A DNA stretch of 64,000 nt. It comes from Eledone cirrhosa. Lineage: Eukaryota. Numbering within the stretch: position 1 is the stretch's first letter; each line of letters begins with the position of its first letter. The notes beneath the pieces are model-generated. The model ran no database searches. It saw only the letters and a program-made list of their open reading frames with translations, and had not been told where the DNA came from. Positions 36,470 through 60,577 of the stretch are shown here, in pieces. The stretch is taken from assembly GCA_964016885.1 (NCBI GenBank), contig OZ024743.1, positions 202,492,001 to 202,556,000 of the forward strand, in the 5' to 3' direction. A program made the translations under genes and the position numbers.

Positions 36470-37195
36470 GCTATTGTTTTAGAGTAGTGACATACTCACT
36501 TACTTTAATTTCAGCAAACAGGGGGAGATAAAGTTGACAAGCCTTGTTTCTGCATTTATTGATGCTTATCAAAGCCAACTACTCCTCCCGTTTGCTGAAA
36601 TCACGGATGTTATGTTCTTATACAATTCTAGTAAATAATCAGGAACTGATTATGCTTGACCCGCAACCGCTCTGTATCAATAAATGCAGAAACAACGCCT
36701 TGTCAGGTTTATCTCCCCCTGTTTGCTGAAATTAAAGTAAGTGAGTCTGTCACTACTCTAAAACAATAGCATAAGGCCTCAAAATGCTTTTAATTAAGCA
36801 TAAAGTGTATTGCAAAATACACTATATATACATTCATATATATATATGGCTATTTCAGAGCACCAATTCTAATTTTTAATTTCTGCTTGACCGGCAACCG
36901 ATCTGTATAATCAGTTCCTGATTATTTACTAGAATTCTATAAGAACATAACATCCGTGATTTCAGCAAACGGGGGGAGTAGTTGGCTTTGATAAGCATCA
37001 ATAAATGCAGAAACAAGGCCTTGTCAGCTTTATTTCCCCCTGTTTGCTGAAATTAAAGTAAGTGAGTCTGTCACTACTCTAAAACGATAGCATAAGGTCC
37101 TCAACATGCTTTTAATTAAGCATAAAGTGTATTGCAAAATACACTATATATACATTCATATATATATGGCTATTTCAGAGCACCAATTCTAATTT
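36470..37195. mobile_element. Retrozyme-like element (about 321-bp unit): inverted part plus about 1.6 direct units, with U3-A8 hammerheads
   Basis: GTTTGCTGAAATTAAAG at 36721 and 37042. HHRs at 36531-36576 (-) and 36984-37029 (+). Ends GCTATTTCAGAGCACCAATTCTAAT followed by (TA)n. Confidence 0.85.
36984..37029 (+). ncRNA. Type I hammerhead with U3-A8 core
   Basis: GGCT-TTGATAA-GCAT caataa ATGCa-GAAA-CAAGGCCTTG-TC-AGCT; distal helix ATTTCAGCAAACGGGGG/CCCCTGTTTGCTGAAAT. Confidence 0.8.
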
Positions 37196-37737
37196 ATATA
37201 TATATATATATATATATATATATATATATATATATATATATATATATATGAGCAGAAACAGATTTGAACATATTCCGATTCTAATCTACACTGCGTCTGG
37301 TGAAAAAAAAAGATCCAAGGAAAAATCATATGTTAATGTATGTGTGTACGTATTTATGAATGTAGGCCCAATACAAAGAGTAAACTGAAAGACTACAATC
37401 ACTCCATCTCACTTTCGCTCTCCCAAACATACGGAAAGCCACACGGAACATGCACATATACAGAGACCTTTCGTTTGACATATTTCATTGACAAAACATT
37501 GGGCAAACCGAGTCTATATTAAATAACACTTGTCTACGGAACTGTACAGTGGGACTGAACTCGAAACGATCTGTTTGTAACGAGAACTACTTCACCATGC
37601 AAGTATTAATATATGAAGTTAATGAATTTTGTTTGATATAAAATTCCCATAGGCATCCATAGAGGAATATGATGAATAATATGACTAATGTCGATAAGGG
37701 ACCGAAATATTAACAATATATATTTATATATATATAT

Positions 37738-38556
37738 AATCCAGGTCTAGCAAATAGAGAAAAAGTTTTAAAATAAATTTTAAAAGATTCGCTGTACTCA
37801 CTATATGTGCCTTTATGCCTTTACCGCGGTTTCAAGTTCCAAAATAAACGGATAATCCAAGTGGAACTACATTGAGAAGGGAACTATCTTCAGAAGGCTC
37901 TTCTCGCTCGGAGAATATAAAATTCCCGAGTTTAAATCACAAACTGACGCCATACAAAACCATTCCCAGATGAGAGTGAATGATGAAAGAAAGAATTCTG
38001 TCTAGTGCCATGTGCAAAGACAAAAGGCAGGGTGGACAGGTCAATGTCCTGCCACTAGAAATAACAGCAGTCCAAACGGCTAAGTTTTATCTCAAAATTA
38101 GGGGAGATTAATAATAATAAAGTATGTGTTCCTACGTGTAAAAAATACATATAGGGATACAAGTATTATCCAACCGTATGCCAATGTGGTTCTATGGCGA
38201 GTTAATAAATGAACAAGCCAGAACATGTAAAATCCAGGTCTAGTAAATAGAGAAAAAGTTTTAAAATAAATTTTAAAAAATTCGCTGTACTCACTATATG
38301 TGCCTTTACCGCGGTTTGAAGTTGCAAAATAAACGATTAATCCAAGCGGAACTCCATTGAGAAGGCTCTTCTCGCTCAGATAATATAAAATTCCCGAGTT
38401 TAAATAACAAACTGACGGCATACAAAACCATTCCCAGATGAGAGTGAATGATGAAAGATATAATTTTGTCTAGTGCCATGTGCAAAGACAAAAGGCAGGG
38501 TGGACAGGTCAATGTCCTGCCACTAGAAATAGCAGCAGTCCAAACGGCCTAGTTTA
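37738..38556 (-). mobile_element. Tandem (about 493-bp period) hammerhead-bearing repeat in (TA)n
   Basis: CCAGGTCTAG at 37741 and 38234. HHR at 37817-37898: GCCTT-CTGAAGA-long stem II-GAAA-CCGCGG-TA-AAGGC. The second copy has lost the core by deletion. Confidence 0.8.
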
Positions 38557-38692
38557 TATATATATATATATATATATATATATATATATATATATATATA
38601 TATATATATATATATATATATATAAATATATATTACACAAATATGACCCTCCCCAAGTATAACAATATATATATATATACATATATATATAT

Positions 38693-38887
38693 TGTTATAC
38701 TTGGGGAGGGTCATATTTGTGTAATAATATTGCCAGAATTAATAACAGAACACACTCACTGTTTGGTTGGTTTTCGCTTCTGTGTCTCTTATATCGCTTA
38801 ATTTAATTTATTCGGTCCTCAATGTTGTCATTGATTGGCCAACGGTCAAAAATACAGACAACAATCATTCCATCTCGAAGTATAACA
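38693..38887. mobile_element. Short element with TGTTATACTT...AAGTATAACA termini (solo LTR or MITE)
   Basis: Inverted termini. The left end recurs inverted at 38630-38663 and also at about 45514 and 55207-55238, always next to (TA)n. Confidence 0.55.
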
Positions 38888-57385: not shown

Positions 57386-57522
57386 CGGTAGGTACTTCTG
57401 AATAGCATGTGGGTGACGTCCATGACTTTGGATAGTTTTGCTTGGAGATCCAGTCGGGGCAATTGGAGACAGTTGGTTGCATGTGACAGGACGTGCTCGA
57501 AGGAATCGGCTCGAAAAAAACT
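57386..57522 (-). CDS. Candidate exon of an unidentified host gene
   Basis: (CTT)n pyrimidine tract plus AG acceptor, consensus donor G|GTAAGT, GC-richer unique sequence, open in two frames. No homology recognised. Confidence 0.3.
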
Positions 57523-59488
57523 CTTAAGAAGAAGAAGAAGAAGAAGAAGAAGAAGAAGAAGAAGAAGAAAGATGCCTCGATTGCAATCGGTTTACGACAT
57601 AAATTATATAGAAATGCATTAAATCGGTTCAAATAAAAATAAATCACGACAGCTCCATGTCGCTTTCTGGTGGCAGGCAGTTAGGTGGTGCGATCGAGGA
57701 AGGAAATATGTCACTATCACCACTATAAAACAATTATTTCTGGAGCCTTTTACAATTGACTTGCCCTAGTTTTGATAGGAATAACTAGTGTAGTGATTAG
57801 GGAGGTTTAAATCAGTTGTTGCATTATACTCGTTTGCCATTATATTCGTAGTAGTTTCTTTGTATTATGTTATATATATATTTATATATATATATATATA
57901 TATTTAAAAGAATAGAGGTGTAACACACGAGTTATGATATATTGGTAAAGTATTAATACAAAAATTCTGTATATATATATATATATATATATATATATAT
58001 ATAACGAAGGAAATGTGGTAAGGAACCAGGTGGACCATAACGCACCAAAACCAGGTGGACCATAACACACCATAACGTCCAGAAATAGCCGTCGAAACGG
58101 CTTGAGCCCAGCCGTCGGGGTCCTACTCGTTCCTATATATACTATATATATATATATATATATATATATATATATATATATATATATATATATATATATA
58201 TATATATAATGGTAAACGGAAAAGAAAATGCTGACAAATTGTTCACAGTGAAAAATAGTTTAATTAGGAATAAGTGAAAATTAGTAATAGTATTGGTTAG
58301 TATTCAGTTTTGGTTTTAAGTTTTACCGGTTGCGCATTTCTAATGCTTTTCAAAATTAATTTTGAGATAGAGCGTCCGTGATGTTTGCTCTAATCTGGAT
58401 TATATATATATATATATATATATATATATATATATATATATATATATATATACAGACTTTTTGTATTAATACTTTCTTTCAATAAACATACTTCATCATT
58501 TGTGAAGATGTCATATATAAGTGAAGGTATGTATAGCTCCTCTGATAATTTGTAATATTTTTATACATACATCTTTAATATGATATACATACCAACACAT
58601 ACATATATATCCCAGAAACGATCGTAAAATGATGATTTTTGCAATATAAGGAACCTGTTCATTGTTTTTATTATTTTATACATATATATATATAGTTATT
58701 AAAATAACAGATTAAAGTTTAAGCAGAGAATCGTTGTTTTCACCCTTAACGGGATCTTCTTTGAGCTAAAAAAATCAATATACATACACACACACACACA
58801 TATATATATATATATATATACACACACACACATATATATATACATATATATATATATATATACGCTGTTATAAATGGACTACATTTTGCAGGATATTAAT
58901 TTCGGAACGTATTTTTTTTGTTTAGCTGATTCCGTAGTTTTATATAATTGATTTCTTCTTAATTGAATTTTTTTTTGTCGGTTTTATAAATGTAAATTTA
59001 ATTGGACTTATTGGATCACGGTTGTCTTATCAGAGATAATTAAATTTAAATCGAGTTCCCTCAGTTGTTAGGTTGTTAGAATTGTCGTTATTTATATTAA
59101 AGTAATGTGCGTGTGCTATATAGACACAAACACATAAAAGCATACGTCTATGTCTGTGGGTCACTGAGCATTGAACATATACATAGAGCTGCACATATAC
59201 GCAAAATCATGTATATATATATATATATATATATATATATATATATATATATATATATATATATATATATATATATATATATATATATATATATATATAT
59301 ATATATATATATACATATATATATATATATATATATATATATATATATATAATTAAAGGTTTAACAAGGTTAAATGAATTAATCAATGAATAAAGTTTCT
59401 CAATAGATTAGAACCACTCTACAGTTAGGTTTTCTGGAGTTATTAATATTAGTTTAAAATATTAATAAATATAGATTTTCATGTGATA

Positions 59489-59734
59489 AAATATATTTTA
59501 TTATACATATTTTAGAGGTACTGAGCTATTTCAACAGTATGTCCTCATCAGATAAAAATAAGTTGATGCCTGACATACCACGTCTATGTTGATGGTTATA
59601 ATTTAGTCATGGCATGCCTAAATTATAACCATCAACATAGTCAAGGTATGTCAGGCATCATCTTATTTTTATTTGATGAGGACGTACTGTTGAAATAGTT
59701 CAGTACCTCTGAAATATGTATAATAAAATATATT
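59489..59734. repeat. About 120-bp-arm near-perfect palindrome with a hammerhead-like core in each arm
   Basis: Centre at about 59610. The left arm on the - strand reads CTGATGA-GGACATACTGTT-GAAATAGCTC; stem I pairing is weak. Confidence 0.75.
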
Positions 59735-59804
59735 TGATGAAATGAATGACTATATTTTTTTAATATTTTGAAGTAATATATATATATATATATATATATA
59801 TGGA

Positions 59805-60577
59805 TGTATATATAATGTATTTTGCAATACACTTTATGCTTAATTAAAAGCATTTTGAAGACCGTAAGCTATTGTTTTAAAGTAGTGACAAATTCACTCA
59901 CTTTGATCTCAGCAAACAAGGGAGATAAGCCGACAAGACTTGTTTCGCTTTGGTTGAAGCTTATCAAGGCCAACTACCCCACCTGTTTGCTGAGATCATT
60001 GATGTTATATTCTTATAGAAATCTAGTAAATAATCAGGAGCTGATTATGCAGAGCGGTTGTCGGTAAGCTTCAATCAAAGCGAAACAAGTCTTGTCGGCT
60101 TATCTCCCCTGTTTGCTGAGATCAAAGTGAGTGAATTTGTCACTACTTTAAAACAATAGCTTACGGTCTTAAAAAAGCTTTTAATTAAGCATAAAGTGTA
60201 TTGCAAAATACATTATATATACATCCATATATATATTGCTATTTCAGAGCTCCAATTCTAATTTTTAATTTCTGCCTGACCAACAACCGCTCTGCATAAT
60301 CAGCTCCTGATTATTTACTAGATTTCTATAAGAATATAACATCAATGATCTCAGCAAACAGGTGGGGTAGTTGGCCTTGATAAGCTTCAACCAAAGCGAA
60401 ACAAGTCTTGTCGGCTTATCTCCCTTGTTTGCTGAGATCAAAGTGAGTGAATTTGTCACTACTTTAAAACAATAGCTTACGGTCTTCAAAATGCTTTTAA
60501 TTAAGCATAAAGTGTATTGCAAAATACATTATATATACATCCATATATATATTGCTATTTCAGAGCTCCAATTCTAA
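59805..60577. mobile_element. Retrozyme-like element (316-bp unit): inverted part plus about 1.6 direct units, with U3-A8 hammerheads
   Basis: Diverged relative of 36470-37195. HHRs at 59928-59971 (-) and 60373-60416 (+). Strand switch at about 60065; ends GCTATTTCAGAGCTCCAATTCTAAT followed by (TA)n. Confidence 0.87.
60373..60416 (+). ncRNA. Type I hammerhead with U3-A8 core
   Basis: GGCC-TTGATAA-GCTT caacca AAGC-GAAA-CAAGTCTTG-TC-GGCT; distal helix GATCTCAGCAAACA/TGTTTGCTGAGATC. Confidence 0.83.

Follow-up and report, generated by a model that had tools for sequence, protein, structure and literature searches.

Introduction

Metazoan non-LTR retrozymes (LTR, long terminal repeat; Cervera and de la Pena 2020, PMC7229834) are non-coding, AT-rich tandem units of about 300 bp with one type I hammerhead each, a palindromic stem III and a circle-like fold, present in thousands of copies and described from expression and circles. 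The consensus letters at positions 3 and 8 of the hammerhead core are C3-G8. Natural covariation to U3-A8 was reported in 2011 (Perreault; PMC3088659), and about 1,300 minimal U3-A8 motifs were described from Penelope-like elements of Schistosoma in 2014 (PMC4209133). Here we analyse a stretch of 64,000 nt from Eledone cirrhosa (assembly GCA_964016885.1, contig OZ024743.1, positions 202,492,001 to 202,556,000 of the forward strand; “the window”), which holds two insertions of a non-coding repeat of about 320 bp with a U3-A8 hammerhead, together with the genome-wide lineage to which this repeat belongs.

Animal retrozymes have also been described as non-autonomous Penelope derivatives (bioRxiv 10.64898/2026.07.22.740005). 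Penelope insertions combine partial tandems with an inverted, 5'-truncated arm, a tail of 30-40 bp at one end and a bias for AT-rich (TA)n targets (PMC8557442, PMC11167929), and their two kinds of end have been explained by two internal starts of reverse transcription (PMC11167929). For the giant squid, 235 Hammerhead_1 matches have been given (PMC6962438). In the literature that we searched, with supplements outside its range, neither this family nor any U3-A8 retrozyme lineage with the full architecture is described. The swap at the core, though rare, is known already, and given the natural cases in PMC3088659 and PMC4209133 an earlier note on this stretch overstated the novelty that it implied for U3-A8.

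Results

The U3-A8 hammerhead and its paired stem changes

The core TTGATAA, in which the 3-8 pair is Watson-Crick as U-A and not in the consensus letters, lies in two complete type I hammerhead motifs on the plus strand, referred to below by their first positions, 36984 and 60373 (Table 1). Three helices surround the core, the open end is in helix I, and the invariant letters U4, G5, A6, A9, G12, A13, A14, A15.1, U16.1 and H17 are all present together with G10.1-C11.1. Along the strand, the 36984 motif consists of GGCT, TTGATAA, GCAT/ATGC, an extra A, GAAA, the stem III palindrome, C17 and AGCT, and the 60373 motif of GGCC, TTGATAA, GCTT/AAGC, GAAA, C17 and GGCT. A distal extension of helix I encloses both, with outer strands TTTCAGC (36960) and GCTGAAA (37046) at the first and TCTCAGC (60349) and GCTGAGA (60431) at the second. 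From the 36984 to the 60373 motif, both partners of one pair are altered in each of three helices: U-A to C-G in stem I, A-U to U-A in stem II, and U-A to C-G in the distal helix. The extra A stands unpaired between C11.1 and G12 and marks a subfamily with 210 exact matches in the genome. That the motifs are no chance resemblance is shown by the folds of their domains (z -7.4 and -8.2) and by the excess of genome matches over a reversed control (see below). As to a putative tertiary contact between loops I and II, loop II ends in A, and helix I has 6 bp in the C3-G8 sister subfamily (see below) but only 4 bp, with U-U mismatches in addition, in most of the U3-A8 subfamilies.

The feature that the earlier note had read from these letters is confirmed as real. 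It had set TTGATAA in the 321- and 316-bp families against CTGATGA in a related 310-bp family, and the letters are as it gave them; the three stem changes that it called compensatory are indeed two-sided, keep their pairs and lie where it had placed them. Both plus-strand motifs that it listed are real, but it overlooked the minus-strand copy in each insertion, and at 36984 it had the U3-A8 core right and missed the extra A before G12. Its interpretation is partly supported. That searches for CUGANGA would miss these families is true of a strict descriptor by construction; an Rfam scan of the window at the gathering threshold, however, gave no hammerhead match at all, the canonical C3-G8 310-bp family included, and this blank can therefore not be attributed to U3-A8. 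The nearest comparison in Rfam is RF02275 Hammerhead_HH9 (clan CL00010), against which 316-bp copies score 26.3 bits (E 4e-4; the gathering score of 52 is not reached): stem II, the 6-nt, A-ending loop II and the core align, while helices I and III differ. In an Rfam scan by E-value, three C3-G8 sister loci yielded no hammerhead match.

The selection on the fold that the earlier note proposed from two copies gains stronger support from more of them. In 49 distinct copies, 96.9% of the cells are paired (30-41% in slid controls), and two-sided changes occur at 13 of the 25 pairs; the 3-8 column contains UA in 34 rows, CG in 12, UG in one and other letters in two, so that 46 of 49 rows are Watson-Crick. 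When the majority pairs of 12 subfamilies are compared, 17 of 19 alternative pair types still pair and 7 are two-sided (one gapped type was set aside, and the two types that fail to pair belong to groups with 1-2 copies). Departures in single copies, which share the same mutational process and served as control, keep the pair in 133 of 301 cases and break it in 168, with 15 two-sided (Fisher p 1.6e-4 for pairing kept and 8e-5 for two-sided change). Core variants were absent from 732 and 504 cells, where about 3.9 and 6.1 were expected (P 0.02 and 0.002); this test covered 12 core columns in complete domains, 61 and 42 in number, whose 60 loci had been fetched by whole-unit BLAST and not by their core. 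Stem III is self-complementary in every subfamily, through several paired changes. As a comparison of sequences, these results support selection on the hammerhead fold.

Copy numbers, the sister subfamily and the 310-bp family

Units of the U3-A8 lineage are 316-322 bp long (321 bp from 36676 to 36997 and 316 bp from 60065 to 60381), non-coding, with 34% guanine plus cytosine (GC) and one type I hammerhead each, and occur in tandems from dimers up to arrays of more than 20. Genome-wide counts cover one 3.0-Gb animal assembly. A general descriptor with U7 and G10.1 fixed, controlled by its reversed pattern, gave 5,235 matches for U3-A8 (173 in the control), 1,380 for C3-G8 (20), 264 for U3-G8 (60) and 139 for C3-A8 (49). 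The lineage-specific descriptor matched 4,197 U3-A8 and 111 C3-G8 motifs, with 0 in the control in both cases. The 111 C3-G8 matches represent a sister subfamily that has the whole unit in common with the U3-A8 forms; a sister descriptor with U7 and the young stem III fixed gave 0 matches, and the sister carries G7.

The 310-bp family, to which the earlier note had compared the U3-A8 units, is related to them (76% over 157 bp, E 2e-22) but distant, the true and much closer C3-G8 relative being the sister subfamily. It has the same two kinds of end as the U3-A8 lineage, and model R1, built without it, gives six 310-bp copies 51.6 bits. The general descriptor misses it because U10.1-U11.1 stands where G10.1 was fixed, a mismatch already known (PMC3088659). 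A pattern search found 14,718 near-identical ribozyme copies of this family in long arrays, apparently the most recent burst, and this number rules out U3-A8 as the commonest hammerhead of the genome. Counted by insertions, U3-A8 leads with 41 against about 10 for the 310-bp family in the first 64 Mb of contig C1; the first 100 ribozymes of each correspond to 65 and about 10 insertions, respectively. Within the U3-A8 lineage, the A-insertion subfamily occurs as 15 tandem pairs and 210 singles, and the GCAT subfamilies without the insertion as 84 pairs (27 of them in one array) and 454 singles; the contrast (p about 0.02 with 26 removed) is weak because patterns and ages differ between the subfamilies.

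Origin of the swap

Trees were built from 158 distinct natural copies with both flanks, in which core invariance would be circular because the copies were selected by core pattern. Columns 3 and 8 were masked, and 103 rows, or 55 rows with the 310 unit as outgroup, were used. In the 55-row tree the U3-A8 copies form one clade (support 95/97) nested among C3-G8 forms, a pattern that takes one change from C3-G8 to U3-A8 on the tree. The clade is a ladder of about ten U3-A8 subfamilies, and the order of stem changes along it was taken from subfamily majorities and the tree only. Divergence from the subfamily majority is 5.4-5.7% in C3-G8 forms, 4.1-4.4% in early U3-A8 forms, 2.8% in the 321-bp and 0.8% in the 316-bp subfamily, the youngest. 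The youngest subfamilies are nested inside the A-insertion branch, which implies that the A was lost again or recombined out.

Insertion anatomy and a Penelope-like family

At 160 loci, the arms of the insertions stop at either of two fixed positions, which lie about 26-34 nt from each other. Into (AT)n run 64 short and 58 tailed ends, with 31 ending otherwise, and of the 37 head-to-head insertions with two ends, 34 combine a short end with a tailed one. The 36470 insertion of the window is flanked by (TA)n tracts at 36421-36469 and 37195-37249. The insertions show the anatomy of Penelope insertions: a partial tandem with an inverted arm, a tail at one end and a microsatellite target.

An abundant autonomous Penelope-like family is present as well, with a 796-codon reading frame for reverse transcriptase and GIY-YIG endonuclease whose nearest named relatives are from bivalves. 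Its protein contains a cysteine linker, which we take to resemble that of Neptune. Among 39 ends of its terminal repeats, 15 are short, 19 are tailed into (TA)n, 4 continue and 1 is cut off. The tailed end and the 310 unit share the short motif with which they close. The minimal hammerhead-like U3-A8 motif in the terminal repeat has 973 genome matches, and minimal motifs with C3-G8 have its last letters in common with it (101 matches vs 35); the U3-A8 motif itself folds no better than shuffles (z -0.5 to -1.1). Copies of the family (window 30637-30900 and 35768-36391, both on the minus strand, and loci L261-L266) also show an extra upstream reading frame and a long microsatellite-like 3' region.

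Predicted folds of monomer and dimer

By nearest-neighbour energies, with tertiary contacts and Mg2+ outside the model, an alternative helix formed by bases 1.4-5 and 15.2-15.8 is predicted to be more stable in the monomer than the ribozyme fold; this holds for 12 of 12 representatives, with a margin of 0.5-8.4 kcal/mol. This helix pairs U3, U4 and G5 with the 5' strand of stem III. For the core fragment, the same predicted energies put the double hammerhead level with or ahead of two monomers in 10 of 10 cases. Of 8 natural monomers, 7 are structured in a circle-like fold, at z -3.8 to -6.9. Within the alternative helix, base 3 faces 15.4 as C-G in 11 rows, U-G in 15, U-A in 11 and otherwise in 2, with 10 rows gapped, and 1.1 faces 15.5 as U-A, U-G and C-G along the ladder. 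A self-complementary stem III is a hallmark of double hammerheads (PMC4209133, PMC6765202). From the modelled energies we infer that the U3-A8 ribozyme would be off in the monomer and on in the tandem.

Other hammerheads and reverse transcriptase frames

Several further motifs and frames were seen. Two minimal-type CTGATGA motifs that form an inverted pair (window 8453, minus, and 9379, plus), their stem II 11 bp long and their stem III palindromic, are probably another Penelope-derived family. Hammerhead-like motifs of other families, one of them U3-G8, lie at window 19201 (minus), 41808 (minus) and 59673 (plus). Elsewhere, loci L091 and L119 (genome G000, contig C1) contain tandem C3-G8 hammerhead repeats of about 466 bp, scored 29-40 bits by R1, which are another retrozyme family; loci L128, L129, L132 and L133 share a recurrent U3-G8 motif family with its own stems, separate from the U3-A8 lineage; and another hammerhead family is represented by two single copies, of which one has U3-A8 and the other C3-A8, at L207:973-1021 and L155:1473-1569, where the core variants may reflect decay or a third swap. 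Fragments of reverse transcriptase-like frames in inverted arrangements (window 16982-17757, 34047-35405, 40921-41547 and 42027-42788) probably belong to Naiad or other Penelope-like elements. A 1,106-codon endonuclease-reverse transcriptase frame of a long interspersed nuclear element (LINE) lies at 2794-6114 (minus), with a related fragment at 50079-51734 (plus).

Table 1. Positions of the hammerheads, repeat insertions and Penelope-like parts in the window.
Feature	Position	Strand	Remarks
310-bp C3-G8 repeat array	28507..30508		7 hammerheads, U10.1-U11.1 mismatch, 6-nt palindromic stem III
Minimal hammerhead-like motif, U3-A8 core, in terminal repeat of autonomous Penelope-like family	30827..30855	-	helix I weak
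GIY-YIG endonuclease part, 3' fragment of autonomous Penelope-like family	35768..36391	-	beside 36470 insertion
Retrozyme-like insertion, 321-bp subfamily (extra A before G12)	36470..37198		short end on minus arm, tailed end on plus arm, set in (TA)n
U3-A8 hammerhead copy	36532..36576	-	stem III shorter by one base, one stem I mismatch
Distal helix I extension around 36984 ribozyme	36960..37052	+	outer part TTTCAGC/GCTGAAA
Type I hammerhead motif, 321-bp subfamily	36984..37029	+	U3 36988, A8 36993, extra A 37009, C17 37025
Retrozyme-like insertion, 316-bp subfamily	59792..60578		arms head to head within (TA)n, left end short, right end tailed
U3-A8 hammerhead, inverted arm	59928..59971	-	identical to plus-strand 60373 motif
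Distal helix I extension at 60373 motif	60349..60437	+	outer part TCTCAGC/GCTGAGA
Type I hammerhead motif, 316-bp subfamily	60373..60416	+	U3 60377, A8 60382, C17 60412

Discussion

In our reading, to which we give a probability of roughly 0.7, the non-coding lineage of about 320 bp, with its more than 4,000 U3-A8 copies, is a non-LTR retrozyme with a ribozyme predicted to be active, and a Penelope-like reverse transcriptase/endonuclease acting in trans would copy the retrozyme RNA into (TA)n sites. The units lie within the 150-450 bp of AT-rich, non-coding retrozymes, carry one type I hammerhead, stand in tandem, and are dispersed and recently mobile, as the 4,197 matches and the low divergence of the youngest subfamily show. 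Since its stems still pair from one subfamily to the next, the U3-A8 motif is likely to be a working self-cutting RNA. The swap retains the Watson-Crick 3-8 pair of the active fold, and U3-A8 ribozymes are active in vitro (PMC3088659, citing earlier work). Tandem or read-through transcripts would be cut at C17, mainly as double hammerheads via the palindromic stem III, a route suggested because the lone unit is predicted to prefer the inactive alternative helix. A host ligase would next close the monomers into circles, by analogy with other animal retrozymes for which this has been shown (PMC7229834), and their RNA would be reverse-transcribed from two internal start sites at the spacing of the two kinds of end.

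In unit length, base composition, single type I hammerhead, copy number, circle-like fold and palindromic stem III the lineage resembles the metazoan non-LTR retrozymes of PMC7229834. It differs from them in the U3-A8 pair, in a longer stem III (4 bp as monomer) and in insertions of mostly 1-3 units with clear Penelope tail ends. The hammerheads of Schistosoma mansoni (PMC4209133) and the variants of 2011 (PMC3088659) share the swap and the Penelope-associated setting; those motifs, as described there, are minimal, with a long helix II and a short helix I but lacking helix III, and are heterogeneous and for the most part single, whereas the present ones have the full canonical architecture and sit in a retrozyme whose switch from a C3-G8 sister can be traced. 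Like the retrozymes proposed as Penelope derivatives (bioRxiv 10.64898/2026.07.22.740005), the lineage co-occurs with Penelope-like elements, and its link to them consists of the insertion anatomy and the short terminal motif shared with the 310 family.

Several points weigh against our reading. The shuffle control on the 49-copy pairing ignores kinship, the covariation at 3-8 is one event and not many, and subfamilies S1, S3 and S10 comprise 1-2 copies each. The core test disregards the absence of CpG from the core, and two partial copies outside it have core changes. The branch to the outgroup is long (0.72), but the divergence from subfamily majorities decreases in the order of the tree. 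The alternative helix is broken in S11. The unpaired A before G12 is found throughout the 321-bp subfamily, and a U3-G8 sub-lineage (support 100/95; at least 2 fetched loci, L123 and L229) lies inside the A-insertion branch; both sub-lineages have spread, so that mobility tolerates core defects. BLAST finds no similarity between the U3-A8 unit and the candidate autonomous element (one Penelope-like family examined), which makes this family a candidate partner and not an established parent, and which, for the one autonomous family compared, is a difference from the retrozymes proposed as Penelope derivatives (bioRxiv 10.64898/2026.07.22.740005). Finally, ribozyme mutants leave Penelope insertion in vitro unblocked (PMC11167929).

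This last result, together with the finding in the same paper that cleavage required the protein, keeps alive an explanation in which the fold is selected for recognition by a Penelope-like protein, with U3-A8 a weak or dead ribozyme carried along and the tandems derived from template jumping or existing arrays. The spread of the A-insertion and U3-G8 sub-lineages, the predicted misfolding of the monomer and the short arrays of U3-A8 units beside the long ones of the C3-G8 310 family would all agree with it. We nevertheless consider it unlikely: both core positions switched together and stayed paired through about ten subfamilies, the unpaired core letters are invariant in 103 BLAST-fetched copies, and stem III was kept palindromic by two-sided changes, which fits catalysis by a dimer.

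Explanations that dispense with a selected ribozyme fare worse. One of them traces compensatory stems and U3-A8 to the correction of inverted repeats by template switching in reverse transcription, combined with AT-biased drift and free of selection on structure. In its favour, the unit is rich in short hairpins and would be copied by a reverse transcriptase, and both changes in the core are transitions, C-to-T and G-to-A, within a unit of low GC content. Single-copy changes arise by that same mutational process, however, and mostly break pairs, and several paths run stepwise via G-U and not in the one step of such a correction; we regard this explanation as very improbable. A small local hairpin in which bases 3 and 8 could pair has a predicted probability of at most 0.014 and is ruled out as the cause of the covariation. 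That the repeat is a satellite or a DNA-level mobile repeat with an incidental hammerhead look can draw on some long tandem arrays, and is hardly credible beside a complete type I hammerhead similar to Rfam HH9, the excess of descriptor matches over their reversed control, and Penelope-type ends common to an element that encodes a reverse transcriptase.

A more far-reaching idea, which we hold tentatively and with more doubt than belief, concerns base 3. It would serve in two folds, the 3-8 pair and the inactivating helix, where its pairing with 15.4 moved from C-G through U-G to U-A along with the swap, and the two together might form a conserved switch that is off in the monomer and on in the dimer. 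If the mobilising Penelope element reached U3-A8 independently, this could point to protein-assisted, deliberately slowed ribozymes and to a large hidden class of U3-A8 ribozymes in molluscs.

On the reading of the lineage as a Penelope-mobilised retrozyme, the C3-G8 sister, its U3-A8 descendants, the A-insertion branch and the U3-G8 offshoot make up a dated natural series in one backbone, and thereby a ready test of the level of hammerhead activity that a retrozyme requires, a question that is open because ribozyme mutants still insert in vitro (PMC11167929). Surveys based on CUGANGA only can miss thousands of motifs in one genome. The common two-end insertion pattern, in turn, is direct anatomical support for the mobilisation of animal retrozymes by Penelope elements.

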